DNA from: Nemertoderma westbladi
Lineage: Eukaryota > Animalia > Xenacoelomorpha
NCBI GenBank assembly: GCA_032718475.1
Contig: JAUCBJ010000513.1
Span: forward strand, 1-34,109
Direction: 5' to 3'
DNA length: 34,109 nucleotides
The notes below the pieces were generated by a model. That model searched no databases. It was given only the letters and a program-made list of their open reading frames with translations, and was not told the origin of the DNA. Below are positions 1 through 24,178 of this stretch, piece by piece. Every line of letters begins with the position of its first letter. The stretch's first letter is position 1. A program made the position numbers and the translations under genes.

Positions 1-2
1 TA

Positions 3-218
3 AGTAGTAGGGTCTTGGTCCTCTCTGCGACACTTGGACCTCACTGACACCCATTGGGTGTCATATGACACCCAATTATCACCCTATGGGTGTCATTGGG
101 TGTCATTGGCGCCAGACTGTCTGGGTGACACCTCCCAATTAGGCTAATTAGACCCTAATTGACAGGTGTCATCAATTAATTAGTACAATTAAACCCTAAC
201 AGGTGTCATATGACTCCT
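3..218 (+). repeat. Left terminal inverted repeat
   Basis: Reverse complement of 5164..5379, with one mismatch noticed (position 125). Rich in TGACACC/GGTGTCA and CTAATTAG sub-palindromes. Confidence 0.97.
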
Positions 219-1035
219 AATTAGGGTTTAATTGATTATCCTAATTAATCAGACTGATTAGCGCCCTGACACACAATGGGTCATCAGTGTTGTCCAACTG
301 TCGCAGAGAGGAGCAAGAGGGTGTCATAAGTGACACCGCAGCTCTTTTATTTATTAATACTTATTTATTTGTACCTAATTTTAATTAATTGTATTCTATC
401 TTACTTTATTTATTCATTTGTACTTTATTTTAAATTAAATATTTGTATTACTTTTACTTTATACATTGATTTCTATTTTTAGATTAAGTAGTTTTTATAT
501 TACCAATGAGATCACTATGACATCATGTCTATATTTAGCTATATAATTACCTATTGCATCCCCCGTTCACCACATTCCCGGCAACTATCAACTACGTTCA
601 TCGGTGGGGACCCCTCCTCTGCCATCATTATTCATTAACTAGATACAACAGGCAGTGAATCTTCTATACGTATACCCCAAGGCAAATATAAATGAGCGGT
701 CCCGTCTATTAGCAGTCCCTTCGTTGACTCACTAATAATCCCATCGCGGCCTTGACTACAGCAAATCCGTATATCGCCCAAGGCTAATGGTCCAGCGGCC
801 CTCCATTGTTCTCATTATAGCCGGCATCGCTTTATCCCTTTCCTATATCCAGGCAGCCCGTATCATAACAATGAAGCGCCTCTAAACACGCAATCCTCTC
901 TACTAATCCCTTTCCTTTGCACCAGACCTGCTTCTGTTATACAGCCAACTCAACATAATTAGTCAAGATGCCTACAGGGGTTTCTAATATAGAATCAACA
1001 CGAGAAGTTGCCCTGGTAACCGCTTTTGCGCGAAC

Positions 1036-1130
1036 AGCCAATCAGCGGGCTTCATTTCTGCTGCTGCGCTCTGATTGGCTCATTTAAGAGACAAGGGCCT
1101 CCCCTACTAACCGAATTGCTATTTAATACA
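1036..1130 (+). promoter_or_regulatory. Putative Pol II promoter with a pair of inverted CCAAT boxes
   Basis: AGCCAATCAG near 1037 and CTGATTGGCT near 1071, followed by AT-rich TATTTAA, upstream of the duplicated leader exons. Motif inference only. Confidence 0.4.
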
Positions 1131-1279
1131 TCCCCACTAATATATTAGATCATTATTTCAATTGCAAGTTACGATTAACATCATTTACCATTATTTTGTT
1201 TTCGAATTTAATATTATTTATTTAAGAATATTTATTTGTTATCGTCAGTCAACTATCCAGTTGTATAGTTATATTATTG

Positions 1280-2070
1280 TCATTTCGCCGCGCTATCGCT
1301 CATTGTCGACAACAAACTTTCCGCGTATCCGCCGCGTAATATTCTTCCGATACCATTCCGTTCTATCGGTTGATAAACTCTCTCGTCGTCCACGTCAACC
1401 AACTTCCTCATCGCCACCGCTTCCAACTTCTTCTTTCCGTGAATATTTACTAACACCGTAAGTAAAATCTGCCTTCCATCTAGCTATACTTTCGACGCCG
1501 CTAGCAAACAATTTACATTTAATGTCTACCGGTACAACAGTATTGCAGTAGGCTCATTATTAATTACTGTCAGACTGCGGTGGTACCGATAGCCTAAACC
1601 GTGATCGAAGCATTCGATCAATAGGCTTACATCCGCCTATCTGCTTACAGTATTTTTTATCTTTTTACAAATAATCATCTTATTTTTCTAGTATCATTTC
1701 GCCGCGCTATCGCTCATCGTCGACAACAAACTTTCCGCGTATCCGCCGCGTAATATTTCAATATTTCTAATTTCCGATATCATTCCGTTCTATCGATTAA
1801 TAAACTCTCTCGTCGTCCACGTCAACCAACTTCTTCGCGAACATCCAAACTTCTTCTTTCCGTGAATATTTACTAACACCGTAAGTAAAATCTGCCTTCC
1901 ACCATCTCCATCGACGCCGCTAGCAAACAATTTACATTTAGGCCTAATGTCTACCGATACAACAGTATTGCAGTAGGCTCATTATTAATTACTGTCAGAC
2001 TGCGGTGATACCGATAGCCTAAACCGTGATCGAAGCATTCGATCAATAGGCCTACATCTGTCTATCTGCC
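1280..2070 (+). repeat. Direct duplication (about 370 bp, two copies) of a probable non-coding leader exon and intron start
   Basis: 1280..1644 matches 1694..2069. Each copy has a donor CC|GTAAGT (1458, 1881). Near-identical acceptor blocks ...AAATAATCA...TATTTTTCTAG end at 1691 and 2583, the latter 7 nt before the ATG at 2591. Confidence 0.85.
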
Positions 2071-2590
2071 TGTCTACCTGACTATCGGTACCGCACATTC
2101 GAGTTAGCCTAGTGCCACTGTAGTAACGATATAGACCCTACTGAACAACAATGAATACTGCAGTTTTCACTATATATCCTACTGACTAACTGAGATCTCA
2201 CACAGCGATTAGCTAGGCCTATTGTTGATTTGTATTGGTTAACGCTACCGGTACGTCTGACTTGTAGCAGACTATATCACTAGCACTACTGCACTGACTG
2301 ACTGCTGTTTATAGACCCTCTTTCCACGAATAATAACTGCCATCGCTATTGTGTCTTGGTTATCGCCACTATCTGACCGCTGGTACACTAACACTACTGC
2401 ACTAGGCACTACCGACGGTCTGCTTTATGTTTCACTGTCTGATTGCTACAATACAGCAATAGGCCTAACTATACAAACACAGTATTGTTGCCTAGTAACC
2501 GATTAATACCTACTGTTTTACTTTATTTTTAGCACAGTATACAGTATTTTTTATTTTTATAAATAATCAACATATTTTTCTAGATTCAAG

Positions 2591-3427
2591 ATGCCAAGAT
2601 CAACCAATAAAGTCAGCTGCCCCATCTGCGACAAAGAGACGCGGAGTGATAATTTATCTCGTCATATTAAAACTCATTTCGTGCAATATAGATGCGATTG
2701 TTGTTCGACTTGGTCTTCGGAAAAGAAGACGCTGGTTGGCCATCTTGTTTCGTGTCCTCAGGGGGGAACAGGATTTAGTTACGTAAACGAGCCAGCCGAT
2801 TGCCGCTGCGGGGATTCGCTCACCCTGTCATCCTTTACTGAGCATGAATGCTATACTCGACTTTTTTCGCGGAAACGCAAAACTCCGACTACCTCCCACT
2901 CATCCCCCATCAACTCTACTCCAGAACAAGTCGGCGGCGGCGGCTCCAATAATGAACCTTCAACTTCGCGAGATTCTATTTCCCCAAACAATCCATTTCA
3001 ACCACCCTCTAACGGAAGCGCACACGGACGACTGTTTACCTATAACAACGACCTCGCAGAAACAAGACTCGACGCAGAATTAACATTAAACGAAAATTTT
3101 CCACACATTCAAGAACACGTTAGTAGCCATTTACAAAGTGCTTTGGGAACTTTTTTAAGAGTCTGGCTTACAATCAATATCGTAATGGAGCGTGAAACCA
3201 GCGAGGGTTTTCAAATTGAATCATTCTGTTTTAAATCTAGCGGTAACAATAATCAAATTCTAAATAATAGCGACTTTAATAACTGGTTTTCTAGCGCCGT
3301 CAATCGTATCGATGAACTGTTAAGCGTGTTTCTCTGCCTCGGCTCGGGTTGGCGCATAATAGCCATCGAGCGAATAACTATTGAGATTGCATGTTCCCAA
3401 CGCAACCCCTATTTAACGGGTCAATAG
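2591..3427 (+). CDS. Zinc-finger protein with a Polinton pPolB N-terminal GSGW domain (putative stand-alone terminal protein)
   Basis: C2H2 finger CPIC..HIKTH and two further Cys/His clusters, then a QVGGG linker. The C-terminal part reads LRVWLTINIVM..FCFKS..IDELLSVFLCLGSGWRIIAIERITIEI..NPYLTG, which matches the GSGW-x-I-x-I..P-L-x-G pattern that precedes the pPolB core. Intact ATG-to-stop ORF. Confidence 0.75.
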   Translation: MPRSTNKVSCPICDKETRSDNLSRHIKTHFVQYRCDCCSTWSSEKKTLVGHLVSCPQGGTGFSYVNEPADCRCGDSLTLSSFTEHECYTRLFSRKRKTPTTSHSSPINSTPEQVGGGGSNNEPSTSRDSISPNNPFQPPSNGSAHGRLFTYNNDLAETRLDAELTLNENFPHIQEHVSSHLQSALGTFLRVWLTINIVMERETSEGFQIESFCFKSSGNNNQILNNSDFNNWFSSAVNRIDELLSVFLCLGSGWRIIAIERITIEIACSQRNPYLTGQ

Positions 3428-3447
3428 GATTTAATTTTAATTTCTAG

Positions 3448-3963
3448 AATAAGAAATTGAGCATCAAAATAGAATTAACCAATAAACAGTTTACCGGAAA
3501 AAACATTGCCAAATTTGAACTAGAGAAAATTTCACAGCAAATTACAGGTCAAAGATGCTTAAAACCAAACATGTTTATCTACAAAGGTGACGATTCAACT
3601 ATAATGCTATTTCCCAGCGGCGCAGTAACAATTGTAGGCCTGTGCAATAATTTAGCTAGTGAATTGCTTTATTTAAAACAAACTATCGGTATGCAATTAC
3701 AAAATTTGAAACTTAATACCGAAACACGAACTATTATTTTTCCAAGTGTTAATTTTAAATTATTAATGAAAAAATGTGGACATCATACAATTAATAATAA
3801 AGCAATATTTATTAGCTATACCCCTGAATTATTTTGCGCGATTAGAATATATATAGGACGTGCATATTTCAGTGTATTTCATAGTAATAAAATTGTTTCC
3901 ATGTGTCCTGCCGGTGAATTCCCCGGATCATTATCTATTTTACAAACTTTATTATTAAATTAG
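3448..3963 (+). CDS. Divergent TATA-binding protein (TBP)-fold protein, probably a spliced terminal exon
   Basis: Two-repeat TBP pattern: TIMLFPSGAVTIVG (compare TALIFASGKMVVTG) and ISYTPELFCAIRIYIGRAYFSVFHSNKIV (compare SYEPELFPGLIYRM..LLIFVSGKIV). About 170 aa, the size of a TBP core. No ATG; the frame opens directly after a TTTCTAG acceptor ending at 3447. Confidence 0.8.
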   Translation, partial: NKKLSIKIELTNKQFTGKNIAKFELEKISQQITGQRCLKPNMFIYKGDDSTIMLFPSGAVTIVGLCNNLASELLYLKQTIGMQLQNLKLNTETRTIIFPSVNFKLLMKKCGHHTINNKAIFISYTPELFCAIRIYIGRAYFSVFHSNKIVSMCPAGEFPGSLSILQTLLLN

Positions 3964-4031
3964 TTTATTTACTATGGTATACATGAAAGTTTACTATATT
4001 ATTTATTTTGTGTTGGTTTTTATTTTTCCGT

Positions 4032-4509
4032 GAGTAGGGTTTGAATCCATGACCATCCGTGTTACCTACTTTTTATAATTGCATTAGTAGGACTCGAACC
4101 CTGGTTTAACTTATTTTGTGTTGGTTTTATAATGGTCGCGAGTAGGGCTTGAACCCGTGACCAGCTGTTTTTCCTATTTTGTGTTTACTTTTTATATTTT
4201 TCCATAAAACGGGATACGAGAAGGGGTCGAACCTATGACCATCTGTTTATCATATTTTGTGTTTAGTTTAGATACTCTAGTTATTTTATGTTTAACTTAT
4301 TTTGTGTTGGTTGTATATTGGTCGCGAGTAGGGATTGAACCTATGACCTCCTGTTTATTTTCCATAAAACGGGATATGACTAGGGATCGAACATGTGACC
4401 ACCTGTTTATCCTATTTTATGTTTAGTTTAGGTACTCTAGTTATTCTATGTTTAACTTATTTTGTGTTGGTTTTATATTGGTCGCGGAGTAGGGATTGAA
4501 CCCGTGACC
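4032..4509 (-). repeat. Array of about 7 tRNA 3'-half / B-box motifs within a T-rich higher-order repeat
   Basis: Minus-strand copies such as GGTCACGGGTTCAAGCCCTACTCGCGACCA (4162..4133), starting at about 4032, 4086, 4133, 4217, 4319, 4378 and 4479. They carry the GTTCRA T-loop (ATTCAA in the first copy), and three end in CCA. Confidence 0.75.
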
Positions 4510-4916
4510 ATCTGTTTATCCTATTTTGTGTTTAGTTTAGTTACTCTATGTTAAAGTGAATTTTCACATTATATTTATGTTAAATGATAAATTTATGCTA
4601 CAATTATTATTTATATTATAAAAACAGAAATATTCGAGTTATATTGCATTATATATTTTTCATTGAAGTGGAATACTTTAGATGTTGTTTGCGAGGGATA
4701 TTTGAATGGTGAGTATAACTATCCTTGAGAGCTAGTGCGACGTTATCTCACTATGGATGGGCTTTACCACTGTACTCGCATCTGAAAGGTTAGCTGTGGT
4801 GTATTAGTTACGCTTAGCATTAGAGAATCCGTCCGTATCACCGACTAGACAGCGAATCTGGCAACCCAGTTTTTGTTCTAGAGGCTTCAGTTTGTTGTAA
4901 ATCAGGGCGTTAGGCA

Positions 4917-5162
4917 CTGAGGCATAGACTATGACTCACTGAGGCATAGACTATGCCTCACGTGAGGCATAGACTATGCCTCACTGGGGCACTGAGGCAT
5001 AGACTATGACTCACTGAGGCATAGACTATGCCTCACTGAGGCACTGAGGCATAGACTATGACTCACTGAGGCACTGAGGCATAGACTGTGACTCACTGAG
5101 GCATAGACTATGCCTCAGTGCCTCACTGAGGCATAGTCTATGCCTCAATGAGGCATAGTCTC
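4917..5162. repeat. Subterminal tandem array of the 21-bp palindrome TGAGGCATAG-A-CTATGCCTCA
   Basis: Roughly 9-10 near-identical units with short CAC/GGCAC linkers, abutting the right TIR. Confidence 0.93.
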
Positions 5163-5163
5163 A

Positions 5164-5379
5164 AGGAGTCATATGACACCTGTTAGGGTTTAATTGTACT
5201 AATTAATTGATGACACCTGTCAATTAGGGTCTAATTAGCCTAATTGGGAGGTGTCAGCCAGACAGTCTGGCGCCAATGACACCCAATGACACCCATAGGG
5301 TGATAATTGGGTGTCATATGACACCCAATGGGTGTCAGTGAGGTCCAAGTGTCGCAGAGAGGACCAAGACCCTACTACT
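5164..5379 (-). repeat. Right terminal inverted repeat
   Basis: AGGAGTCATATGACACC...GGACCAAGACCCTACTACT is the reverse complement of 3..218. Confidence 0.97.
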
Positions 5380-5507
5380 AGCATATATGATATGATTACC
5401 GATTAAATATGCAATAGTTTAAATCTTTTAAACGTTATTGTTCATGTTACAACCATTAATTATCAAATAAGCGTTAACAGATTAATTTCGTTTAGAATAC
5501 AGTTTAT

Positions 5508-6434
5508 TCAAACATTAAAAGTAGCAATTTTCTGCTGAGCTGCGATAATATCCTCGTCATGAGGGCGCACATATATGAGGTAGCAATCACTGCTCCAACG
5601 CCCCATTTTCTTGATAACACCTGCTGCAATGCCACACTTGGCGGCTTCTGTGGCCAATCCAGCACGCATGCTATGACTGCTATACGTTTTTCCATAGCAT
5701 TTCCGCAGCATGCTATTAAATGAAGAAGCTGTCATCCTCGAACCATCATCAAACAGAAAGAGGAAAGCATCTGCATGAGCAACACGGTCTCGGCAATGAA
5801 TGTAACGTAACAAAGCAGTATATGGGCAGATGAAGCCAACAGTCTTGGCCACAGGACATGGCTGTGGTAACGCAGTGGTTTTAGTAGCGAAAACCATTAA
5901 GGTCAAATGGTCTTGATGGAATTCAACATTAGACCTCTTCAGAGCGAGTAATTCCGAAATTCGTAACGCCGAAAAGAATCCAACATACAAACAAGCCCTA
6001 AAGCACCGAAAATTCCATGTTGAAACTCTTCCAAAGTTTCGTTCATACTTAGAAGCGAAAACACATAAGTCTTGCAGTCTTAAAGGTGTAGCTCGTTGTA
6101 CAACCGAAACAGAACTATTCCTATATCCATGTAACAGCTGGGATAATCGTGAGTCATCACAATTTATTGCTACGTTCCGAATCCTTGCTTCATTCTTTAT
6201 ACCGCTCAACATGCATTGAACTGTGTTGGGACTAAACGAATGACACCAAGCATAGACCACAAAACCCTCTAACTTATCTAAAGTCACAGGGCCGGGCACT
6301 AGGCGGGAAATATGACACCACTCAACATATTGTTTCCACCAATTGGCATATTTCTTCTTAGTAGATGGACGTAAGCTGCTATCGTACAGAGCAGCAGTCT
6401 GCCTCTTACAAGCAAAGCTGACTAAATACCTCAA
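5508..6434 (-). CDS. Tyrosine recombinase, DIRS/Ngaro (lambda integrase) type
   Basis: N-terminal SLRPSTKKKY..WKQYVEWC helix. Catalytic set LRISE (R), TKT (K), HSMR (HxxR), GRWSS (W) and CYLIYVR (Y). Uninterrupted frame; the TGA stop overlaps AATAAA. The start is uncertain (TTG, with a possible acceptor TTTCCCAG just upstream). Confidence 0.92.
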   Translation of the reverse strand: MRYLVSFACKRQTAALYDSSLRPSTKKKYANWWKQYVEWCHISRLVPGPVTLDKLEGFVVYAWCHSFSPNTVQCMLSGIKNEARIRNVAINCDDSRLSQLLHGYRNSSVSVVQRATPLRLQDLCVFASKYERNFGRVSTWNFRCFRACLYVGFFSALRISELLALKRSNVEFHQDHLTLMVFATKTTALPQPCPVAKTVGFICPYTALLRYIHCRDRVAHADAFLFLFDDGSRMTASSFNSMLRKCYGKTYSSHSMRAGLATEAAKCGIAAGVIKKMGRWSSDCYLIYVRPHDEDIIAAQQKIATFNV

Positions 6435-6737
6435 GTGTTGCTGGGAAACGAGCCAACTTGGATGTTAACCAATAAATGAGCAGTATTTAATGAGAATCAA
6501 TTTCTTAAGCCGTTTTAATTAATTTAGATCAATTAAAGACACAATTATTAAAGCAAATCACTTGAACTAATTAAAAACTATAATAGAATGGGGTATGTGG
6601 ATTACATCTGTATAATTTTTAAGTATAATTATTTAAATCTTATACTGTAAAATAATTAATTTCCTTTAACAGGCAGGTTGAAAGTGCTGTTTTTACCGTA
6701 ATCAATTTAATTAACTAATTAACTGCTATTATCTTAG

Positions 6738-9539: not shown

Positions 9540-10708
9540 GCGGCGGGTGCACCGGGGGGAAGCAACGAAGGGAGTGCAGAGGATTCAAAATGGGCAATGT
9601 TGGCGGAGGGGTCACCGTTGCGGTCGGGAGGTAGTCAGTCAGTGGGGACTGAATTCCTGTTGCCGGATCAGTATTTGGGGGCTGACGATCCAGATTTTGT
9701 CTCTATTTGTAGTGTTAGGGGGCAGGACTTGGGTTTGTTAGGAAGCCTATATGTAGCCAGGGGAGGCCTTCGTGTTCTACACTGCTAACTGCTAATTGTA
9801 AATTGTTAATTGCATACTATACTGGTATACTGATACACTACTGTGTGGCTTTAGTGCACTAGCTGACTGGTAGTCAACGCAGTACTGTACTACTAGCTGA
9901 TTGCTATGCTAATTTCTGTGTTGCTAAAGTGTGCCTGATTCTTGATTATGAATGCTTAGTTAGGCGCCTTTCCCTTGATTGATTTCTATTTCTTAGTTTA
10001 CGTTTAATAATTGCTGATTAGGTCAAAATAATACAGTATTAAGGCTGTTGCTAGTGTAACCCAGTACGTAATAAATTAGAATTGCGTATTCTGGAACATT
10101 CAGTAATTAGTACGCTGTTCCCTATTTATGACTGTAATTAATTAGCGTTCAAATAAGAATTTGTACGGAGCATAGCGGAGAGTAGTTTAAGTAATTATTT
10201 AGAATACTGTAGACTATTCACGCTAGGTGGTTATTTGAAAATAGCGGGCAACAAGCTGATAGCAGCATCCTGTATACAGTAGTAGGTTGCTGGCTTAAAG
10301 CCAGCCGAAGGCAAGTTTAGACCCTAAATACAGTACCACGATTGGTCCCGGTAGGTCATTAAGTTATTTAAACATTCTCACATTCATCAATTCTGTTAGT
10401 GAATTCCAGTACTTGCGATAAGTGAACATGCTGAGTGTAAGCCACCCCCACACTCGTTTTAAGTAGCTTAGGCGAGCCGATTCGTGTTTATTGTTTTGGT
10501 TATTCCCGCGTGGCTCATAGATTCGAACAGTTAGCTCTCTGTCGAGCGATCGGTAGAGAAAGGAGCAAGCGATTTTGTAGGAGCCGTATAAAATTAGTAA
10601 AACAAATTAGCGGATGGCCAGGTTAGCGCCATCCAGCAGTGAGAAGCAATTTTGTGTTTAGCAGCAGTGCAGCAGTAATAACGCGCTCCTGATCGCGCTT
10701 GTTTAACA
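9540..10708 (+). repeat. 5' LTR
   Basis: Colinear with 24179..25338. Homology ends at GATCGCGCTTGTTTAA(CA). The left edge is fuzzy (about 9530-9550). Confidence 0.88.
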
Positions 10709-11678
10709 GTAGAACACGTGATATTTGCTGTTGCTTGCAACAGTAAAGAGTGTGTTCACTAATCGCAAAATACAGCAGTTCATTGGGCTGTTAGGGTAGT
10801 GTACTGTTTTTATTTACTGTTACTTCGTAATAGTAAAACACAATTTTTATTTTTTGCTGTACTACGTACAGTAAGATATAAGGAGTGCATTTACTAATCG
10901 TAATACAGTAATTCATTAGGCTGTTAGGGTAAATTGTAAATTAGTAAGTTTTGAAATTTTAGCTAGGTTTGTGAGAATTCAGTTTCGGTCAAAATTATTT
11001 TATAATATAATCCAGAGTTTTTGTACCGGTATGTTAGATAACCGCTTAGTTGTTTTATACCATCTGGAGATACATGGCGAGACGGAGCTTCTGAGTTTGG
11101 GGTTTGTGTGGGCCTGCGGGTTTGGTTTGCAATCAGCGACGAGACTGAAACTTTGGACGCGGATGTGGAATCTCACAGCAAACAAGGTTGGTTGTTCTGT
11201 TGGTACCATTGTATTTGTGGAAGCAGTAAAAAATTACCGGTTGTTTAACGGCGAAGCTGAACTTAATTTATTAGTTAGGATAGTTATAGGTTAAGCCGGT
11301 CATGGTATCCAGGTCGCAACCTGAAGGTGTAGCCACGCGCCAGTGGATATATATAATATTTAAAAATAAAATTACGTCGATTTTGAGCTATATATAAAAT
11401 TAGAAATATTTGGGTGACTGATTCATTTTTTTGAATTTTTTGAATTAGATTCAAAACTATTTTGTGTCATACCGGTATTTAAATGCTATATAATAGCTAT
11501 AGAGCAATATTTTCGTTTAAATGTCATACCGGTATTTACTATAACTATATACCATTAAATTCACAATATTATATTGCGAATTTATTTTGACATTTGAGAC
11601 CAAATTATTTGGTACATAATTTAATTGTATTTCGATTAAATTAATATATCTCGAATTTTTGCGAGATTTTAGCCGACT

Positions 11679-14600
11679 ATGAGTGTCTCAGAGAAGGAGG
11701 CACTAGAGGACAGTTATGAGACGGCGGCCGGACCACCGAATGATAACAGTATAGACATAACTGTTGATGACAATGCCGACTATGACGATGCAGCAAGTGA
11801 CGCTGACGTAAGTGAACAGGAGGACGAGACAGTAACCAGTGAGGAAGAACAAGGTGAGATAATACCTTTAGGATCCCCTACCACTACAGTAAGGAAGGAT
11901 TGCACAGCAGCCTGGCCAGAGGTGAGTGATAGGGAAGGAAGTGTAGCAGGAGCGAAAGCCCAGAGCCCGGTTTCCAGACCTGTGGGTATGGTAAGTGCCG
12001 TGGCCCCAGTGGATGTAAGAAGTACCCGTAGTTCCCGTAATAATCCCTCAAGTCCACCGAGTGTGAGTCAGGTAAGCGAGAGAGAGGTAGATATCAAGAT
12101 AAAGAAGAAACTTCGCGCGCATTCCAGACATATAACCTGGATGACAGACAAGGTAAGGAAGATGCTAGCCGACTCTGTTAACATCGGAAGAGAAGGGTTA
12201 GTAGAATTTAGAAAGGGATATAACTCAGCGTTGTTTAAGCAGATGGAGGAACTTGCAGTCCTAGCGAAGAGAGCAGTGGAGTCTCAGTTGAGTGATGTAG
12301 CGACTAGGGTTTATGACAGGGCTTTGGCGGCCTTGTTGGATCACCGCGCGTTATCGGAGCGATTCCGACGAGTTAGGACAGAAAACTGGTTGCTATGGGT
12401 GTCGCAAGCGCAGGCGACTCAGGTAAGTGACGCGGAGCTAAGGAACTTAGTGGGGCAGGAAGAGACCCAAGACAAGGAAGAGCAACGATACCAGAAGGAA
12501 GTCACCAGCTGGCTGATGCAGAGCAGAGTATTAGTACCGGGTCAGGTGTTACCGACGACGGAGAATATCCAGCAGAGGACGTTAACTCCACCCGACGACG
12601 CAGCCAGAAACAGTGGTGATTCTCAGGTTAGTCGTGCGCAAGGGAAGGTTATATGCGCTAGATCCCTAGTTTCTCACAACTCGGCAGAGGAGAGAAGACG
12701 ACAATTAGACGAACAACAGGCAGACGTTTTACGTGCGTCGGAGGCACGGAAGGAAGCCAAAAGAGAAAGGGAGCGCAAACGGAAGTTAGACGCAAAGCTG
12801 GGCGAGTTGGAGGACATAAGTAAGCGTGAGCAAGCCGAGTGCGAACACGAAGAACGCGAATTCTAACTCGAGCGCAAACATGAACAGAAGGAACTCTAAC
12901 TCGAGCGCGAATGCAAAGAGAAGGAACGCGAGCGCAAGAAGCGCAAACTCCAACACGAACGCGAATGGGAAGCCAAGGAACGCGAACAAAGGAGATGCGA
13001 ACTCGAGCGCGAGAAAGAGCGACGCGCACTATACGAAGAAAAGGAGTGACTGGAAGAAGAGAGCGCAGCGAGACTCGCGAGGGAAGAAGAACAATGCAAA
13101 CTGGCGCAATTGGAAAGTGCGAGACTAAACTTAGAGAGCAAAGAACGAACTAGGAAGGCGAATGAAATCGCCGAGAAGGGGATGCGAATGATTGAAGAAT
13201 GTGGGGCGAGTGTAGGTACCGAGTTGCGAGAACTGTTCGCACAGCAGAAGGCCAAACAGGAGGCGAGAACTCCAGTTATATGTAAGTCGACGGCGACCAG
13301 AATTCCTATACCCGGTCCAGCTATTATGAGTACTCGGATCGCTAAACCGTTTTCTACATATCGCACGCTGGTTGGCATTAGTGCTTCACCCATCGCGCAG
13401 GATCCGTGCCATCAGGACGGCGCACCGCGACGCAATTATTATTGGGACGAGAAGGAGTTTAGAGAAGAAACTCCTAGAGGCCGAGTATTGGGCGAACCGA
13501 AACCGCAAGTTTGGAATACGCGGATGGATCGCCGACCCAGTTCGACGGAGAACTTCCGGGTTAAAATGGAAGAGGGATCATATGAGAGACAGCGGATTAC
13601 ACAAATAGAGCCGAAAATTCAGCAGAACCCTAGCCAGGAGTTTATTACAAGGGAGGAGTTAGGTGCCAGTTTAGCGCAAGCTATATCGCCACACATCCAA
13701 CCTATAACGGACATGCTTAGTAACCTACAGTTAAAGGAAGCAGCACAGGTAAGAAGTAATTCTAATCCTAGCAGGCCTGAACTAGATAGAGTCCAACCTG
13801 GCCAACAAGTACGCATATCGGAGGCAACAATACCACAAGGACCTCAGGTAAGAACGCCCGTCCCTATGATCTATAATCCCGATTTCGAACACTCGGCGGA
13901 AAGGTTTATACAAGAAGCATCAGCACATGAACATTCGGCATGAACACTCGGCACATAAACCGACGCGAGCGCTGAGAACCGACACAGACTCGAGCGATGA
14001 ATAGGAAAAATGAGACGTCAGAAGTCCCAAAACCGGAAGGAAAGAAGGACCGACGCCGAGCAGGTAAGTATGAATCCCCGGGAAAGGACCAGACTTAACA
14101 ACCCTGCAGAACTAAACAATTTGTTAACCTGGAATGACGCAACCCTTAGAGACATAGGTAAGTTTGCCGCTGGGCAAGGACTGCCGACGCAACAACCCCA
14201 GAAGTTTATGGGCAACCATAGGCATTGGAGGACGTTTAAAACCTATGTCGACGAACAGCTGACCAACAGCACCTTTACTCCCAATGAGAAATTCAACTAT
14301 TTACTGCAAATTCTCCATCGAGAACCTATAGCCATTGCTGATAACTTCGTCAGCAATGAAAGAGTGTTTGAACTAGCTATGAAGACACTTAGTGACATCT
14401 ACGGGAATAAAACCAAGATGGCACAGTCGATAGTGGAAGACTTGGGTAAGGGCAGAAGGATTACGACCCCATTGGAGCTGTTGAACTTAGCGAACGCTAT
14501 TTCAAACGCATTGGACATCATAAGGATGGTAAATCAGCCTCATCATGGTGATCATGCCGAAGTTTTAAAGAGTATAATTAAGACTCTTAAATATGCATTA

Positions 14601-15224
14601 CCGACAGAAATGGTGCAAACTAGAAAATAAGTTAGAGGGTCAAGGTAAGGTGTTGACACTTCAACACATCCATGACATGATAGCCACAGATGCGGTAGCA
14701 GAGATGAAATCAAACTTCTCAGAGGAGAATATGAGAGAGTCTAAACCTGTTACCGGTAAGTCAATGGTAAGTTTTGACGATGACAGAACCACTGTAACTT
14801 TTAACTCAGTAGACAGATACAATTCGAGTACCCCTGCCTTTAGACCAGACTTGTGAGTATGGTCAGGTGAGAGGTCAGATAGACCTAAGGTGAAACAACA
14901 GGAGTTGCCGAATTCTGCCTACTAAAGGAGGTAAGATCGGACGACCATAAGTTAGACAGTTGCAGACGGTTCAAAGAATTAACTTCGGAACAGAGAAGGG
15001 TTCAAGTGCGGACGTTGGACACCTGTTGGGCATGTCTTGCACCAGGTCATATACGGCGCCAGTGCCCGAACAGCAAGGACAGATGCATGGAATGCGGCAG
15101 ACTACATCACAAGTTGCTACATGCAGACATCCATACCCCAACCCCTACAGAGGAATCCTCAAAGGAAGGGGAGCAGAGATCCCGTAACGATAAGAAGAAA
15201 TACGTACACTGGCATCCACGATGA
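11679..15224 (+). pseudogene. gag: BEL/Pao gag (coiled coil, DUF1759-like capsid region, Cys/His knuckles), disrupted
   Basis: E/R/K-rich coiled coil; PQKFMGNHRHWRTFKTYV..EKFNYLLQIL; knuckles CWACLAPGHIRRQC and CMECGRLHHKLLH. Several stops and frameshifts. Confidence 0.9.
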
Positions 15225-18200
15225 TGGATATCAACCAGGTTCGTCAGACAAGGATGGCGAAGCGAGCGCGAGAGAGGTGACCTGCCAAGGGTTCACCACG
15301 GATAGTTCATCGACCAGCGCGCGGACGTATTTATCATCAGCCACGTCAGAAATATTCAGCGTGATTCCGGTGAAACTTACTGGAGATAAGGGATCGAAGA
15401 GAATATATGTGATGTTGGACACTGCATCCACATTATCGTATATAGATGAGGAAGTGGCGAGAGCCGTTTCCAGCTTCCAGGACGCCGATGAAATAAAGAT
15501 AGAGTTAAAATCCATGCACGGGGTAGGTGACCTCAAGGGACATAAGATTTCGGTAGAACTAGACTCCCTACTCCCGGGAGACCAGCACACTCACCAAGAG
15601 CGGAGAGCGTTGCCATTGGATGGATTTAAGTGTCTAGCTATGAAAGGGTTCAGCAGGCAGTTAGGTAAGGTGCCACCGATGAGTCCCATAGCACAGGAGT
15701 ATTTTGACAAGCTCAGAATACCGAGACACCAGGTGGGTTATAGGAACGTATCTATGTTGATTGGAGCAGAACAGCTAATCGCGCACCAAATATGGGAAAC
15801 GAGACCAGCTGAGCTGTATGTAAATGGGCCACACGCCCATAGGACTATATTATGTTGGTATACACGAGTACCCATGTCCTATGAGTTTTCAGGCGGCGAC
15901 AAGCCAAAGGATAGACACGACGAATTACAGCCTATAACACAACAACCATTAGTAGAACCACCAGACATAGACGAGTTTAGGAGAACCTGTATTGACCACT
16001 ATAGCAACTTTAGCGAGTCAGACGAGGAGTTGATTCCCGATAATGTTAGATTGTCGGAACCACTCTACAATGACCGGACAGATACTGAACCCGAGGACTA
16101 CTGTTATCAGACCCGTGGGTCTGGTTCAGCTGCCCACGCCACTTATTTGAGTAACGTTTTGACTTATACCAATATAGTGGATGGTCAGGTGGCTAAATAT
16201 CGAGACCTCGACATTTTTCAATTCAGTAAGGAGGAGTTACAGAAGGAACTGATACGCCAGTACCTCGAGACAGGAGCTAAAACTGTCAAATGGCTGGACA
16301 GGGATGCGATGGAACCCGGTGGTTATGACCTAACCATGTCCACAGATGAGAAGCGGTCGCTAGAGATGATGGAAGATATCATACATCTGCTACCGACAGG
16401 ACATTTTGAAGTTGGAATGTTGTGGCGTCGACAACCCCTTAAGTTGGAGAACAACTACAACTTGGCCCTGAAAAGATTGAACGGAGTAAGGGCTCGGTTG
16501 CTAAAGAATCAAGACGCACAAATCAACAACTATTTCGTCAAGGGATTTGCTGGGAAGGTAGAGAACCCCGACTTAGTAACGGACCAGACTTATTACCTCC
16601 CACACCACTATGTGACTCACCCCGACAAACCAGACAAGGTTCGAGTAGTCAATGACTGCGCAGCAGGCTATAGAGGTATGTCCCTGAATTCAGAGTTGAT
16701 GGATGGTCCCAACCTAAATAACTACTTGATAGGGATACTATTACGCTTTAGACAGCGGCGATTTGCGTTTACTTGCGACATCGAGGCGATGTTTCACCAG
16801 GTAAGAGCCTGTAAGGCGGACCAAGATAGTCTCAGATTTCTCTGGTACGAGAATGAAGACCTATCCGGCCCAGTGATCACATACCAGATGTATGTTAGGA
16901 TATTCGGCGCCCGCGATAGTCCCAACGGCAAGCTGTTTGTCTTAAAGAAAATGGCAACGGCCCAGATTGGTAAGTATCCAGTAGATGTTATCGAGTCCAT
17001 CCTGAGAAACTTCTACATGGACGACGGATTGGTGTCCAAGGACACAGCGGAACAAGCCATAGAAGTGGCTCACGGCCTACAGGAGTGCTTGGCTATGGGA
17101 GGTTTCCCACTGACCAAGTTCACCACCAACTCGGAGGCCCTATTAGAGTCATTCCTGGTGTAAGATCGCGGGAGCGGAGACATTGAATTGGGTGTAGAAC
17201 CCATCCCCATGGCGTGAGTACTGGGACTCGCTTGGAATCCGAACACGGATAAGTTCCAGGTGAGAGTTAGGTTTGAACCTAGTAGCCCAGACAAAATTTT
17301 GACTAAGAGAATCTGCTTATTAACAATGAGTAGACTATTTGACCCGATGAACTTTATCAGCCCGGTAATATTACAGGCACGAGTATGTATGAGGAAAATT
17401 TGGCTGTCTGACCTAGAGTGGGACGAGCCAATATCCCCTATACATGCAAAGCAGTGGAGAGAGTGGGAAGCCGAGTTACATCTATTGAAAAATATAGATG
17501 TACCCCGCTCCTACTTTCCAAATCAGCTGGTATTTCCAGCTGATCTTGAACTGCACTTATTTAGTGACGCAAGTGACACCGGCTTTGGTATGGTAGCCTA
17601 CCTTCGCCGTGAGGTAAGTCAAGATAAGTTTGAGACGGCCTTTGTGAATTCTAGATCAAAGACAATGCCGGTCAAATACATGACTGTCCCTCATGCAGAG
17701 TTGCAGGCGGCAGTAGTCTCAGTCGAGGTAAGTAAGCAGATAATAGAGGAGTTGGACATGACATTGACATTATTCTATTGGACGGACGCATCCTTAGTGT
17801 TAGTGTATATTGCAGCTGACAATATTGCACTAAAGACATTTGTGGCCAACAGACGCGCTCAGGTCGTAGACTTTTCGACAAAGGAACAATGGAGACATTG
17901 TCCGGGAGTGTTAAACCCGGCCTACATAACTTCGAGAGGTGCTATGCCGGCGGAATTCTGTCAGGAGGAATCCCAGGAGTTTTGGTTACATGGACCTGAT
18001 TTTCTAACCAGGACACAGGAGCATTGGCCAGAGCGATTGAAGATTGTGACCAATCCGATGCCGAAGGATGCAGAAGTCAAAGTGGAGAAAGTCTCCAAGT
18101 CTAAGTCGAAAGCCAAACTCGAGTCATTGGAGCGGCCTGAAGAGTCATTGGAGCGGCCCGGAGACCTGTCAGACCAAGAGACGTACGTGACTATGAGGTC

Positions 18201-19925
18201 CGGAAGGGTAAGTTATGACATAAAACCACCCTTACAGACTACACAAGGGTCACGATTAGTAAGTGACGGACAGAAAATGACCGACAAAATGGAGCCTTCG
18301 GTTTCCATACCTGCGGGTTTGGATTCGAAACTTCCATTAGCCAGTGGGCAACCGTCGCTGGCATTAGAGCCATGTAGTATTTATGACAAATTACTAAATT
18401 CGTCCGCCTCTTGGCTGACAATTTGTAAAAGAACTGCGTGGTTAAGCCGATACGTTTCGTATCTTTGTTTAAAACATTCAGAACATTTAGGAGAACAAAC
18501 GAGCACTAATAGTGAGCGAATTCAAAAATTGAAACGACCTCTGACAGAGGATGAGATTGATCAAGCGGAATTAAAGCATTTGAGGCATTATCAAATGTGT
18601 GCCTTCCCAAAAGAATTCTATCTGTTATCGGCTCAACGACCAGTTCTCTATAAACCCCTCAAAAAATGGAGTCCATTAATCCATAAGGGTTTGATTTGTC
18701 ATAGATCGAGAATCCAGACTGTCGACATAAACTCACAGTTTAGGTTCCCAGTGATAATCCCTAGTCACCCAATAGAATTGCAAAGAGCGATTCTATGGGA
18801 TATACATAAGAGGCTGCATCACGCGGGAAGGTTACACTGTTTGTCGGCAGCGAGACAGCGATTCATTCTATTGCAGTTAAGCATAAGCAGGGCAGTAGGT
18901 ACTATGTACGACGCCTGTCTGGTTTGCAAGAGGGTGAACGCCAGAGTATTGGAACAGGAGATGGCTGAACTCCCGGAAGCGAGAGTGCAGGCATATGACC
19001 CACCCTTTACAAATATGTGGATGGACTGCTTTGGTCCAAATGATGCAAAGAGTGGACGGCTGACCCACAAGAGATGGGGCCTGCTACTGATATGTATGGC
19101 TAGTTGAGCCGTACACATAGAGCGTGTGGCAGATATGTCGACCAAATCTCTGCTCCTGGCCTTAAAGAGATTTGTGGCCAGGAAAGGACTAGTAAAGGCA
19201 TTCTACTCTGACAAGGGTACAAACTTTGTCGGGGGGAATAGCGAGTTAAACGCAGCTCATAGGGCGGCGCAGAATGGAGAAATCTCTGCAGCACTTTTGC
19301 CGCAAAGAGTGGAGTGGAAGTTTAACACTCCAGAAAGACCCTGGAGAGGAGGAAGTTGGGAGCGTTTGGTTCGCTCCATAAAACAGGCTATTGCTAAAAC
19401 ATTGCCTGTAAACAAACAACTTACAGACAACGAGCTGGTAACAGCTTTCATCAAAATCGAGCATACCTTAAACTCGAGGCTGATAGCTATGTTGCCTGAT
19501 GGTGTTGCATTAACGCCGAATCATTTGCTAATGCAGAGTCCAGCGTTTCTTGTGCCAGCATCAGAACCCAATAGTGCCGACCTATACAGTCGAAAGAGCT
19601 GGAAAATAACACAGTTCGTAGCGTACACATTCTGGGAATATTGGCGGGAATATTATCTTCCCACAATATCCACCAGATCTAAGTGGTACAAAACAGTTCA
19701 GAGCCTCCAAAGAGGAGACTACGTATTAATAACCGAACCAGTTGTCAGAGAAAATATTGGGAGACTGGAGTCATCTTGCACATACACCCGGACGTACAAA
19801 ATATAGTACGCACTGTCACTGTAAAAATAAGGTGCAAGTATCCAAACAAGAATAAGTATAAAACTAATGGTTTACACACACAGACTGGTCCAAGATATCG
19901 TGTTACTAGAGAAGACACGCATTGA
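15037..19925 (+). pseudogene. pol: BEL/Pao pol (aspartic protease, RT, RNase H, integrase), disrupted
   Basis: Protease MLDTAS. RT: YYLPHH, KVRVVND, DIEAMFHQV, LRFLW, NFYMDD. RNase H: LHLFSDAS, FYWTD. Integrase: HHAG..CLVC, MDCFGP, YSDKGTNF, GGSWERLVRSIK, FWEYWREYY. Stops at about 17161, 17215 and 19105, plus frameshifts. Confidence 0.96.
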
Positions 19926-20727
19926 GACAGGAGACTATAATTTATCTTCTGCCTCAAACCAAAATTAGTGTTAGAATGCAAATTCACTTCGTATACATTC
20001 CTCGTATGCAAATACTCGGAAATGCATAGGAGCGGGTTTGTGGTGATTTGTGTTGAGAATTTGTCTGGTGGGTATCAAAACAAAATTTTATTTTCATAAA
20101 ATGTTTGGAAAATTAAAAAATTTTAAAATTATATGTTGAACCCAAGACAATTCCAAACGCTGCATATAGACGCGTTCTAGAATTCGTCTATAGATGTACA
20201 GTAATTTGAAAGTCGTGAAGCCTGGAAAATAGTATCTAGACACCATGGTTACGGCTATATTAAGTAGGAGTGTAAATTGAGTTCAGTAACTTCCACAGAT
20301 TGGTGCCAACAGTACAACAACCAAGGTGCTAAAGGTTAGTAGCACCAGAGGCGTACACAGACCCCACTCAGTAGTTTGCAGTGGAGTGAGGTGTTCGATT
20401 ATCAAACCTGCGGGTTTGGTATAGTCGAACGCCATAACTATTATCCTTTCTAACTACTGTAGTCTACTACAAGTATTGGGGAGTAGCTTGGGCATCAAAA
20501 AGTGAGTCGGTCATGGCCAGTTTATCTCCGAAGTTTTTGTGCTATGCATGGGAATAGGTTAGAAGGTAGTTAGGAATGAGACGGGATCTAGAAACCTGAA
20601 CCTGAACTGCTGGAAGGCGGCCGGGTAGCTCGGGAAGTTCGTCCCTCCGCATCATCTAGCTGACTTACCCACAGTGTAATTAGTTACGTAACGGACCTAA
20701 TTGGGATAAATATATATACTTGGCAAT

Positions 20728-23700
20728 ATGGAAAAGGAGATTCGAGCACAACCGAGGAGAGGTTTCACCGCCAGAGAGGAAGCGGAACTACGGTTCGCCC
20801 GACCTGGGTGTAAAGATTCCAATGTTTACTACCATGGGAGATCGGTAATGGAGTTGAATGGGAAGTGTAACCCCACGTACGAGAAGGAGTTGAGGAGGGA
20901 ACGGATGCGAGCGTTGGGAGACCGCATGGAGGTTCTACGAAAGGAATATCGCACTCGTTATCCCTACGACTTTGCCCTTGATGTGTGCAACATTAGCGCC
21001 GGCCCTGATGAGGAAATCACCTGTCTATATCATATGAACATGTATTTACGGCACGATGAACCGCTACCTGCAGTCCGAGATCAATTCAACGGGATGCATC
21101 TTTACCGGAGGACCCGAGGCGAGGATCCTGAGACGCCAAAGGTTTTCAGTGTATACAAGTTGTTCTAAAAATGCGGCGAATGCATGAATAAGCAAGATGT
21201 AGCAATTCCCGATCGACTGAATGAGCAGAATCCTGAACCGATATTAACGTGATGTCAAGCTCATCAGTTTCTTAGATATAACGAGGGAGGTTACCCGATG
21301 AGCAACCCGATGATCAGTATCGACTGTAACAGAAAGAGACCTCCGAGACCCATTACGCCGACCGTTATGACTTTAGATCTGTATACGGAGATTAAACCCT
21401 GTTCGACACCCGCCTTGATAGAAACGGCGGCGGCCATTTCGCTTTACCGAGCCTATAAAGACCTAGAGGCGCGGCGCGAAGCGGCACGGGACTCAAGTAC
21501 CAAACCCGGGGGTTTGGAACTCTCGAGTCCCTGGACCACATTTACTTCGCCTCACCGAGGGAGAAAGCTCACGCCTGAGCATCAGGACGATATAGACACG
21601 TTGCAGCAGGAGGAGCGAGTGGCGAAAGCGAAGCAGTTATTCGAAGAGCATATAGCGGAGTACAACAAGACTGCGGATAGACATCAGGAGGAAACTAGGA
21701 GAGTGACTGGATTTGTTCCACAGGCTGTATCTCAACCCCGACTGGTGTATTATTCCGACGGCAACGGACCTGCAATATTGGTAGATCACCCGGAGTCGCG
21801 AGAAGCCATTCGATTCTTGCCGATGGTGACATTGTCGGATCATTGGAACGTTGACTGCTTACAGGAAGTTTTATGCGCGAAGTTCTTGCGTGACGTCCCG
21901 ATGCAAATAACGGATTATGATACGTTAGACAAGATCGGAGCTCCGGGGAAGGAGAGTAAGTTATTCGGTTGGTTGGACAAGTATATAAAGGAATGGGTCG
22001 CGGTGGCTACGTTCCCAGACGACCAGGAGGTATATCAGGTGTGGCTGAGGAGGAAGGGTTCCTATACCCAATATGATGACCATAAGGCTATCGAGCGCAT
22101 ATGGACCCCATCCGACGACATCCAGCGTCAATGGAGGAAGACGGAGGAATCCCTAGAGGATTGGCATGTAATGTTCTATGACAACGAGGGAGGGTCCCAC
22201 CAAGAGTGCCTAACTAGCAAGTGCATTCAAATTCGCGTGGCTGATGGCATGACTCACGTATTTATGCGCGTGAGGGCGGACTGAGAGAGACTGGAGCCCA
22301 TCATAACGACGCAATACCGGCGAGGGAAGGATCCTAGGGAGCAGATCTTGGAGGTATGTAGGCGAGGGGGTATGCATGGAGCGGAGCGTATCGACGCCAG
22401 GATGTTACCCAAGAAGGTTAGAGAGGCGATTCTTAACCAGGATTACGTAAAGGTGGGATCAGGAGTCCAAAGTGATTTGGAGAGCGACTTCAACGCCATG
22501 GCGGATTTGGAGGATCGATTGCCGAGACCGTTTGTCGACACCAAGCTATTATTGCTATGGGCACAGGATATTGGAATTTATAGGGAGTACCCAAACTCTG
22601 CTAAGACTGGTATGGGCTTTATAGCGCATTTGTTGTACAACTGGGACTTCAAGTTGAAGACGCAAAAGAAATATGAGAAGGCGTACGGTGAATATAACAC
22701 GCCGCCGCGAGCGGAGTTCAAATCCCACTTTAAGTGGCAAGCGTTAGTATTGGAACATCTGCGCGCCACCCCGTGCGTTGCTGCAATATTATTTGGTACT
22801 AGAGTCGAACACGGTAACTTGTTTAGTGGCAAATATCATTGCGCGAGTTCTGAAGCGTCATCCATTGGTGTTCGGAGGAGATCAATACGTTCGTTCGAAA
22901 GGAGGAATCCAATCTGACGTGATGAAGCGTTTCTTAACCCCGTTCTTCAACCAATCGCTACAAAACACGTCGAAGGTTTGCCGTTGGTGAAACGAGACTG
23001 ACCATTCATTCCATACGTGCACCGTCTTCATTTCTCAGTGTGGATATTGTGGGGTAAAGGGACACCGTAGTGCAAAGTGTCAACTGTGTGATGATTCCTT
23101 CCAGAATCATAGCGCCGAACCTCCTTCGGGGGATGTTAGACAAGTGGGAGGGTGTGGCTGACTACCACATCCAGGCGCAAATGCGGTGGTTGTCGTTTAA
23201 AGCAGGATACAGGTTCTGGGCGGTAGATCCATCACACGTTGCCTACAAACCGTATTTGCAATCCCTACCACAATACCAGGAGCTAATACTGACTGCTCAA
23301 GACCTTCCGCAGAATACAGGAGTTATAGTCGTTAGATCATATTTTCGACAGTTAAACATGGACAATAAGTATACCTGGAATTTCGTTGCTATTTGCGACA
23401 GAATAACCAGAGGTTTATTTTCAGAGACGAGAAAGGTGCGCGAGGAGACTGGAGGATGGCGGCTATACAATACCGCAACGAATTCTTGTTGACTCACATA
23501 CGGGTGGGGTCATTGACCGCCGAACGGGTGGAGGTGCAACGAACCGCGGCGCCCACAGCGACAACAGCCGGAGCTCACAGCTCGCAGCAAGTACCAGAAG
23601 GAGGAGTCCTAGACAAGCGTCAAGTTAAGGACGAGCAGTTTCACTCTATTATCGACACACAACGACTGCAACGGAAGGCACAAGGCGCGTCTGAAAGGGC

Positions 23701-23944: not shown

Positions 23945-24178
23945 TGCGATAATATCATGGAGCGACAGACTCTAGACATATACATCATCATCACTCTGAT
24001 GTATATCGTAGGTTTTGATAAAACAATCGACTGGACTCGTATACACTAGTCGTATTCATATATTCTAGAATTTTAGCGAATATTAGCAGAGAGAGGCGAA
24101 GGAGGTGACTGGGGAGACAAACCCGCGGGTTTGGCTTACTCCTTTCACCTGCCCTAGCCAGGCGGCTGGCTGGTGGCT

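Follow-up and report, generated by a model that had tools for sequence, protein, structure and literature searches.

A repeated 5.4-kb Polinton-type element of Nemertoderma westbladi with a stand-alone terminal-protein-like gene and a likely TBP-like frame

Results and discussion

Ends, target site and copies of the element

Contig JAUCBJ010000513.1 of Nemertoderma westbladi begins with a short element between Polinton-type ends, which raises the question whether it is a satellite with genes of its own or the remainder of a larger Polinton. The window, i.e. the whole stretch of DNA analysed, had a length of 34,109 nucleotides. The element occupied positions 3..5379 (5,377 bp) with the termini AGTAGT...ACTACT. 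The boundary features were:

1..2, no strand: TA, the visible end of the left target-site duplication, from the sequence and the empty site
3..218, plus strand: left TIR, 216 bp, starting with AGTAGT, with a 24-bp palindrome at 53-76
267..318, minus strand: inner inverted copy of TIR positions 13-63
5164..5379, minus strand: right TIR, ending with ACTACT
5380..5385, plus strand: right target-site duplication AGCATA, from the sequence and the empty site

The TIR arms (3-218 and 5164-5379, 216 nt each) were identical in 215/216 positions with a single mismatch at position 125, in agreement with the near-perfect Polinton-type TIRs described in an earlier note on this DNA. Polintons are recognised by TIRs with (AGT)2//(ACT)2 or (AG)3//(CT)3 ends, and the element has the former. 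For the region 13-318, a single long DNA hairpin was predicted (-104.6 kcal/mol, a value without shuffle control). At the target site, the window held AGCATA on the right side and only TA on the left, where the first four bases lie outside the view. A contig reading ...ATATATAC directly followed by AGCATA... was present in all four sequencing runs (at most three samples) and thus represents an empty site without TA before 5380. The target-site duplication ends in TA, and its length is in the simplest reading 6 bp (AGCATA), as in Polintons, while 8 bp fits too. The empty site hence supports the AGCATA duplication proposed before, whose left copy is visible as TA only.

Contigs of the sequencing runs revealed a repeated family with other flanks and divergent copies, so the element is not single-copy; single-copy status together with an origin by exact internal deletion would have spoken against the reading of the earlier note. 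Other flanks behind the terminus were observed in three of the four runs, with 5-6 contigs each; these flanks were assigned by the terminal 50 bp that their elements have in common. With the flanks assigned by these 50 bp only, the element has the Polinton ends, the repetition and the distinct insertion sites of a non-autonomous Polinton derivative. Other elements had the first 390-547 bp in common with it, beyond which the sequences diverged. Contigs of the ORF1 region with 9-11 % divergence and without gaps occurred in runs X2, X3 and X4; some divergent ORF1 contigs were gapped, in run X4 one with a single gap in 394 nt and another with 9 gaps. Relative to the flank, one ORF2 contig had a depth of 15.6 in X3 vs 1.6 in X4, a tenfold difference between runs. 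Summed contig depths were set aside as a measure of copy number, because short repeated contigs count many times.

Gene content

The element carries two open frames of interest:

2591..3427, plus strand: ORF1, 278 aa, with zinc fingers of C2H2 type (from aa 9 to about aa 56), a linker and a PRD1/adenovirus-type terminal-protein (TP, D1) domain (aa 147-278)
3448..3963, plus strand: ORF2, 171 codons from stop to stop, likely a divergent two-repeat TBP-like protein with a start likely provided by splicing

Further ATG-initiated ORFs of at least 80 aa were absent from 3-5379, and twelve other stop-to-stop frames of at least 55 aa had no Pfam match. A tblastn search with 904 ORFs from 90 Polinton-bearing loci yielded seven matches at E<=0.01, six of them in the TP domain and one short match near 1220 (E=0.003). 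Remnants of vOTU, polymerase, integrase or capsid genes were not detected in the element. The RVE integrase, capsid, ATPase and protease of autonomous Polintons are missing, as is the catalytic core of the protein-primed PolB, a protein represented by its D1/TP part only. The tblastn and Pfam searches of the element frames thus confirmed the reported lack of replication, integration and capsid genes.

The terminal-protein-like gene

ORF1 combines zinc fingers with the TP (D1) domain of a Polinton pPolB, an assignment strongly supported by sequence comparison and structure modelling. A profile of 11 Polinton pPolB D1 regions matched ORF1 with E=3.5e-10, the runner-up among 602 window frames having E=1.5, and the reciprocal phmmer search gave E=1.6e-5. 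The AF2 model of the domain, built on a 52-sequence alignment, reached a pLDDT of 83 and showed the order b-a-b-b-a-(GSG)-b. Its top VIA match, 4ir1, was the little finger of a Y polymerase (Z 9.6, rmsd 2.8, 105 aligned residues), and the ten best structural matches were all Y polymerases; the fold comparison with the PDB listed neither an adenovirus TP nor that of PRD1. PRD1-type TPs have been reported to possess the little-finger fold of Y polymerases (bioRxiv 10.1101/2024.03.18.585575). The four-stranded sheet with two helices typical for D1 was present in the ORF1 model, whose fold partly reflects the TP family because a family alignment served as input. Between helix 2 and strand 4, D1 domains also have a Ser or Tyr close to Gly/Pro, and here Ser252 (nt 3344-3346) within GSGW is the predicted linking residue; its column was at least 90 % conserved in the TP alignment. 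For Polintons, structure models predict D1 as the priming protein, the GSGW serine as the linking residue and a vOTU cut between TP and vOTU (bioRxiv 10.1101/2024.03.18.585575). ORF1 ends with LTG-Q-stop: the stop lies one residue past the LxG linker, within the stretch of the predicted vOTU cut, and the tblastn search described above found no vOTU remnant downstream.

The best BFVD matches to ORF1 were an adintovirus C2H2 protein (E=3.4e-6) followed by MELD PolB; the former belongs to Drosophila-associated adintovirus 2 and with its 560 aa is roughly half as long as a pPolB. Other searches were less productive. A word-based search with aa 140-278 among longer proteins retrieved no relatives among 265 candidates; in viral_contigs, ORF1 found one zinc-finger-only locus and the GSGW pattern none; PDB sequence, PHROGs and NCBIfam searches returned only zinc fingers or nothing useful. 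The D1 profile and the little-finger fold hence uphold a stand-alone terminal-protein-like gene. That it is the satellite's own priming protein needs qualification: the order zinc finger and TP is also present at the N-terminus of pPolB P0005, thus an ordinary N-terminus of some pPolBs, and a deletion can yield ORF1.

The TBP-like frame and the noncoding parts

ORF2 is likely TBP-like on the basis of a weak sequence match. Pfam TBP (PF00352) matched both repeat 1 (aa 16-65) and repeat 2 (aa 115-150). The scores of 17.8 and 16.3 bits obtained for ORF2 lie below the curated cut-off of 22.9; shuffled ORF2 sequences scored as high once in 2000 in one test and once in 200 in another. The TBP-like gene noted before therefore stands as a match over both repeats, but a weak one. 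The spacing of 74 between Phe55 and Phe129 equals that in L098 and L096, with the first Phe displaced or lost, and the spacing Phe129-Phe144 is 15 vs 17 in L098. None of 300 shuffles of 3428-4000 reached an open frame of 171 codons (longest 103). ORF2 relatives were not obtained by phmmer against 1.84 billion representative proteins (E<=0.001), in a word-based search (0/40 candidates related) or in viral_contigs, and the single-sequence structure model had a pLDDT of 30. A TBP profile run on 94 fetched loci, a good part of which were short, detected no TBP-like ORF (best E=1.1), and the element had no DNA in common with any of these loci. The first ATG of ORF2, at 3571, leaves 130 aa only and was judged an unlikely start, because most of repeat 1 would be lost; ahead of repeat 1 there is no in-frame ATG. 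Of the two intact ORFs claimed originally, ORF1 is complete with 278 aa, while ORF2 is open over 171 codons and its ATG-initiated part is shorter.

The noncoding features were:

1038..1090, plus strand: inferred promoter-like region, in which two CCAAT boxes at 1038 and 1074 face opposite ways and ATTTAAG is TATA-like
1100..2583, plus strand: 5' leader with predicted splicing (exons about 1100-1457 and 1692-1880, introns 1458-1691 and 1881-2583)
3428..3447, plus strand: ORF1/ORF2 spacer, 20 bp, with a splice-acceptor-like tract ending in TTTCTAG
3996..4550, minus strand: array with seven tRNA T-arm/B-box-like units (units 4037-4502)
4909..5161, no strand: 22/30-bp palindromic repeat array adjoining the right TIR

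Both predicted leader introns have the form GTAAGT...TTTCTAG and lie inside a 425-bp duplication. The two predicted exons contain no ATG vs four in the introns, with a probability for none of about 0.02 for exon 1. The spliced leader of the earlier note thus gained these two introns and ATG-free exons, the splicing itself being a prediction from the sequence. The spacer was covered by contigs in all four runs, with a length variant at 3440, and its acceptor resembles both leader acceptors. Candidate in-frame donors for the 3448 acceptor are located at 2612, 2783 and 3119; a 28-nt intron from 3420 fusing ORF1 to ORF2 was ruled out as out of frame. The structured repeat arrays reported before were recovered at about 3996-4550 and 4909-5161. 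ARAGORN and Rfam identified no tRNA in the element, and Rfam miRNA matches on the palindromic array, far below the gathering scores, were dismissed.

Propagation and origin

We hold with moderate confidence that this repeated Polinton-type element without polymerase, integrase or capsid gene is a helper-dependent satellite with a free zinc-finger terminal protein and a likely TBP-like factor. As only two intact genes were kept, the element likely spreads by use of the copying and insertion enzymes of a full-size helper. One promoter and the spliced leader would give the mRNA of ORF1, whereas ORF2 would be expressed when the acceptor at 3448 is used in alternative splicing. The zinc fingers may recognise the TIR, and Ser252 would take the first nucleotide from the helper pPolB, possibly one already without its own fused TP; primed by a free TP, the satellite would not be limited by the single fused primer of the helper. 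The helper RVE integrase would insert the copy with a 6-bp duplication, and the target of the TBP-like protein may be the promoter of the element itself or the B-box-like array. A more tentative claim, possible in our view but short of probable, is that selection keeps an exactly processed TP, with origin-binding zinc fingers, a priming domain and an end at the predicted vOTU cut, together with the element's own TBP-like factor, re-priming the helper polymerase at the helper's expense. The selected ORFs of the earlier note were not substantiated: among the variants listed, 6/12 coding variants were synonymous (0.27 expected, p=0.076) and 0/12 indels fell within the ORFs, the 25 % coding part (p 0.03-0.06), which is only suggestive of selection on ORF1 and ORF2 and not significant.

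These values are also compatible with a passive deletion derivative, a Polinton from which the whole region separating the pPolB N-terminus from an accessory TBP-like gene was deleted, and which is copied due to its TIRs alone and has intact ORFs as the family is young. The domain order of P0005 and the divergence of other elements beyond the first 390-547 bp agree with such an origin, and in Pieris, according to the accessible text, polB-less Polintons are still mobile (bioRxiv 10.1101/2025.02.07.637071). We nevertheless regard it as unlikely: the stop falls one residue past the LxG linker, the tblastn search showed no vOTU remnant behind it, the 20 bp that follow make up an acceptor resembling those of the leader, gap-free copies of about 10 % divergence exist and none of the 12 listed indels hit the coding part. 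The free TP may alternatively be no invention of the satellite, if the parent, a Polinton relative of adenovirus-like type or a segment from a split genome, natively had the TP as a separate spliced gene. Adenovirids and tectivirids have such a separate TP gene, the 560-aa adintovirus protein would suit this layout, and vertebrate Mavericks are described as intronless in the part of PMC8097293 available, vs the predicted introns here. Among the fetched loci, however, each of the 26 long ORFs that matched D1 ran at least 500 aa beyond the TP, in a set biased to fused forms because the loci were fished with vOTU motifs; we consider this inheritance improbable. Least probable, and very much so, is an interfering element that represses autonomous Polintons because its free zinc-finger TP occupies origins and blocks them, or titrates the polymerase. 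Repressors of this kind have parallels in defective-interfering genomes and the KP repressor of the P element. A dominant negative would be expected to bind the ends and to lack the polymerase, and the tenfold difference in ORF2 contig depth between X3 and X4 would accord with repression, but the predicted linking serine is retained and the element itself is repeated and inserted with near-identical TIRs.

Were the ORFs under selection, Polintons would have gene-bearing satellites as other viruses do, and a free TP would serve, in trans, a polymerase that usually has a TP of its own, mirroring the presumed split of TP and polymerase in adenoviruses. ORF1, as a natural gene ending in the predicted TP/vOTU linker, offers a small separate protein for priming assays and hints at where cleavage takes place.

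Relation to known elements

The element shares with Polintons/Mavericks (Polintoviricetes, adintoviruses) the (AGT)2//(ACT)2 ends, TIRs and, in the simplest reading, the 6-bp duplication (PMC8097293, accessible part), the D1/TP domain of pPolB and, with P0005, a zinc finger N-terminal to the TP. It differs in size, 5.4 kb vs the 15-25 kb stated in the accessible part of PMC6431247, in the lack of the pPolB core, vOTU, integrase, ATPase, protease and capsid, and in the stand-alone TP ORF and predicted introns. Polymerase-less Polintons are already known: those of Pieris mannii are TIR-bounded, without polB and inferred to be mobilised in trans, but have at least 12 kb, kept core genes and TE cargo, and the accessible text does not contain the words 'terminal protein' (bioRxiv 10.1101/2025.02.07.637071). 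TBP genes are known as well, since MELD viruses have been listed with TBP homologues before, which qualifies the TBP gene as a distinguishing feature. MELD viruses, set beside the element by description only, are likewise midsize linear dsDNA elements whose accessory genes include a TBP-like one, and are whole viruses (Starrett et al., bioRxiv 10.1101/697771; PMC8502044, accessible parts). In the literature covered, with Repbase, subscription journals and the original Polinton papers outside the scope, no element reduced to TP and TBP was described, and a prior database entry is possible. Transpovirons are, in the available part of PMC5499653, TIR-bounded, capsid-less and helper-dependent linear DNAs of about 7 kb; they encode a TP-vOTU-palm-helicase protein and need giant viruses, whereas the present element encodes none of these parts but the TP and is integrated, with a target-site duplication. 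The adenovirus pTP and PRD1 TP are stand-alone little-finger TPs with a Ser or Tyr near Gly between helix 2 and strand 4 as well, in genomes that encode their own polymerase. Both carry helical extensions absent from D1 domains, whereas ORF1 is D1-like and has zinc fingers instead.

Structure and gene content of the element

The element proved to carry near-perfect terminal inverted repeats (TIRs) and two ORFs as its sole long frames, in line with the earlier description as a mini-Polinton.

3-5379: element, bounded by the TIR arms
3-218 and 5164-5379: TIR arms, 216 bp each, one mismatch
1038-1090: a pair of CCAAT boxes in opposed orientation, with a TATA-like word, predicted from sequence
2591-3427: ORF1
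3448-3963: ORF2, stop-to-stop
4037-4502, minus strand: seven tRNA T-arm/B-box-like units, copies of one unit
5508-6212, minus strand, in the right flank outside the element: tyrosine-recombinase ORF (Pfam Phage_integrase, E = 1.2e-7)

The termini AGTAGT and ACTACT represent (AGT)2//(ACT)2, reported as the commonest end motif of Mavericks, together with 6-bp duplications (PMC8097293). When 904 ORFs taken from 90 loci with Polintons were compared with the element by tblastn, seven matches reached E ≤ 0.01: six within the ORF1 C-terminal domain, and a 32-residue one near 1220 (E = 0.003). Since the matches were confined to these places, no remnant of vOTU, polymerase, integrase or capsid was detectable by this search, as anticipated in the earlier note for replication and capsid genes. 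Without polymerase, integrase or capsid, the element is not an autonomous Polinton. At the left end, the terminus is repeated inverted further in (within 13-318), so that this end is predicted to fold into a single long hairpin; a palindromic 22-bp array of another kind lies at the right end, with TGACTCA occurring four times.

ORF1, a probable terminal protein

A C2H2 finger is located at residues 9-29 of ORF1 (Pfam E = 7.8e-5, just below cut-off). Direct database searches gave no relatives of the C-terminal part, therefore loci of Polinton-type polymerases (pPolB) were fetched with a motif of the vOTU domain, and the set was then extended. A profile built from 11 regions located upstream of vOTU matched ORF1 with 35 bits (E = 3.5e-10); the runner-up among 602 window frames reached 4 bits. 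In the alignment of ORF1 with 51 such regions, Ser, Trp and Pro of GSGW...P were at least 90 % conserved, the ORF1 C-terminus LTG-Q-stop was in register with the LxG preceding vOTU, and an LxG-type motif formed the row end in 44 of 52 rows. By sequence match, ORF1 is thus tied to the terminal-protein family (TP or D1), the predicted replication primer, as had been proposed. A model of residues 140-278 (pLDDT 83) contains two helices and four strands, Ser252 falling in the stretch from helix 2 to strand 4. The model was matched best by Y-polymerase little-finger domains (4ir1: Z 9.6, rmsd 2.8, 105 aligned; best Foldseek match E = 2.7e-3); in the comparison with viral models, a 560-aa adintovirus C2H2 protein (E = 3.4e-6) and a MELD PolB came first. 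The same fold, residue position and little-finger match have been reported for D1/TP by Krupovic et al., who also predicted cleavage between TP and vOTU (bioRxiv 10.1101/2024.03.18.585575). Our model was built on the family alignment and so speaks for family identity more than for ORF1 alone. Zinc fingers precede TP also in fused pPolBs (P0005; one of 26 long locus ORFs), while others have a Rho_N-like module in place, which suggests a swappable DNA-binding front end.

ORF2 and predicted expression signals

TBP was the only Pfam match of ORF2, with repeat 1 for the 171-aa form (E = 0.003) and repeat 2 for the 130-aa form (E = 0.009), both below cut-off. With a profile built on those 81 of the 126 TBP-motif frames fetched that measure 170-330 aa (mostly archaeal), ORF2 came out top of the 602 frames in the window with 10.2 bits (E = 0.011) and was beaten by 1 of 2000 shuffles; hhalign aligned 154 columns, 1 of 200 shuffles scoring equally high, and BLAST against the TBP of a fetched sequence, L098, gave 26 % identity over 114 aa (E = 0.001), all these tests sharing one signal and not being independent. 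The middle Phe spacing is that of TBP (74) and the last is 15 versus 17, with the first Phe out of place. A search of 1.84 billion proteins returned no homologue, and the single-sequence structure model had a pLDDT of 30. The proposed TBP-like gene leads the ranking but scores below the Pfam cut-off; TBP ancestry is probable from sequence comparison. Figure legends on MELD viruses mention TBP homologues (bioRxiv 10.1101/697771; PMC8502044), hence genes of this class were already known from that virus group. A 450-aa protein from viral contigs (472-1821 in both L095 and L100) combines a divergent TBP domain (Pfam E = 1.1e-15) with a long basic tail in one chain.

The spliced leader noted before was recovered as a prediction: two GTAAGT...TTTCTAG introns upstream of ORF1, with no ATG in the predicted leader exons (P ~0.02 for the first exon). 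The 20-bp ORF1/ORF2 spacer also ends with TTTCTAG, in frame with ORF2, and predicted candidate donors in this frame lie at 2612, 2783 and 3119. AATAAA follows ORF1 at 3481, and ATTAAA is at the ORF2 end. Adenovirus early units use a shared leader with alternative acceptors, an arrangement that the predicted signals would resemble. Directly behind ORF2, the array units resemble tRNA 3'-halves with B-box words, two ending with CCA; all five exact B-box-like matches of the window fall within 4037-4502. ARAGORN and Rfam called no tRNA genes in this array, which possibly binds Pol III factors or serves as an insulator.

Insertion site, copies and selection

Contigs of four public runs (X1-X4; at most three samples and three studies, one run possibly being the window's source) were aligned to the window. 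In all four runs the right flank from exactly 5380 was matched by a contig continuing leftwards as ...ATATATAC. The left flank of the window ends with TA, where these contigs have AC, thus bases ending in TA were duplicated on insertion. For the target-site duplication, the AGCATA proposed earlier (6 bp) is the simplest fit, but AGCATATA also fits. The insertion lies 128 bp beyond the stop of the tyrosine-recombinase ORF, which probably belongs to a DIRS/Ngaro- or Crypton-type repeat. Flank depth was 130-250 versus ~20 for three flank-bearing contigs; the flank itself seems repeated, therefore the empty site may be a paralogue instead of an allele.

The element is clearly repeated. In each run, 30 of 30 bins of region 1-6500 were covered, with thousands of short variant contigs in X1-X3 and 188 in X4, and contig pieces 9-11 % divergent were found in ORF1. 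Beyond the terminus, 6, 5 and 5 low-agreement contigs entered other flanks in X1, X2 and X3, showing that the terminus has inserted at other sites too, although these insertions need not include the 5.4-kb interior. Loose contig ends at 390, 547, 4784 and 4901, among those listed (636 further), mark other elements that have the sub-terminal regions in common with this one before diverging, candidates for a helper, the hypothetical full-size Polinton, or sister families; among the 636 may be a minority of copies running from ORF1 on into vOTU. The element/flank depth ratio (3692-4123 versus 5380-6389) was tenfold apart between X3 (a single ORF2 contig, 2033.6 versus 130.5, ratio 15.6) and X4 (likewise one, 72 versus 46.4, ratio 1.6), contig depth not being readable as copy number; differing copy number, extrachromosomal copies or a bias of the library could each be the reason.

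Twelve of the 40 substitutions listed (318 further) were in ORFs, six of them synonymous against an expected fraction of 0.27 (p = 0.076). None of the 12 indels listed (33 further) hit an ORF (p 0.03-0.06), and one fell within the 20-bp spacer. Gaps in two divergent ORF1 contigs of X4 count against selection, for which the data are suggestive, not decisive.

Origin of the element

We favour, with some reserve, a helper-dependent satellite. The product of ORF1 would be a free TP with zinc fingers, equivalent to what vOTU cleavage is predicted to release; it would prime the element's own ends using the helper polymerase, and the helper integrase would insert the element. Random deletion accounts least well for three features: ORF1 stops cleanly at the linker, an acceptor follows this stop immediately, and no vOTU remnant was detected. 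A passive deletion derivative is less likely. Descent from a parent with a natively separate TP is more doubtful still, and an interfering repressor appears the least probable reading. Mobile polB-less Polintons have been reported (bioRxiv 10.1101/2025.02.07.637071), and Polinton-N1A_NV is an example of the names already used; an element reduced to TP and TBP was not found in the literature searched, a scope outside of which were Repbase, the founding Polinton papers, figures and supplements.

Neighbouring sequences

A BEL/Pao LTR retrotransposon occupies about 9625-25336, with repeats ~14.63 kb apart, Peptidase_A17, DUF1759 and DUF5641, and is broken into several ORFs. Extra ORFs at 20728-23944 lie behind the integrase; the two scanned had no meaningful Pfam match. 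A run of ORFs at 28669-32388 (minus strand) includes one with a weak zinc knuckle, and 30040-30498 appears by eye related to 22372-22917 within the BEL/Pao element.
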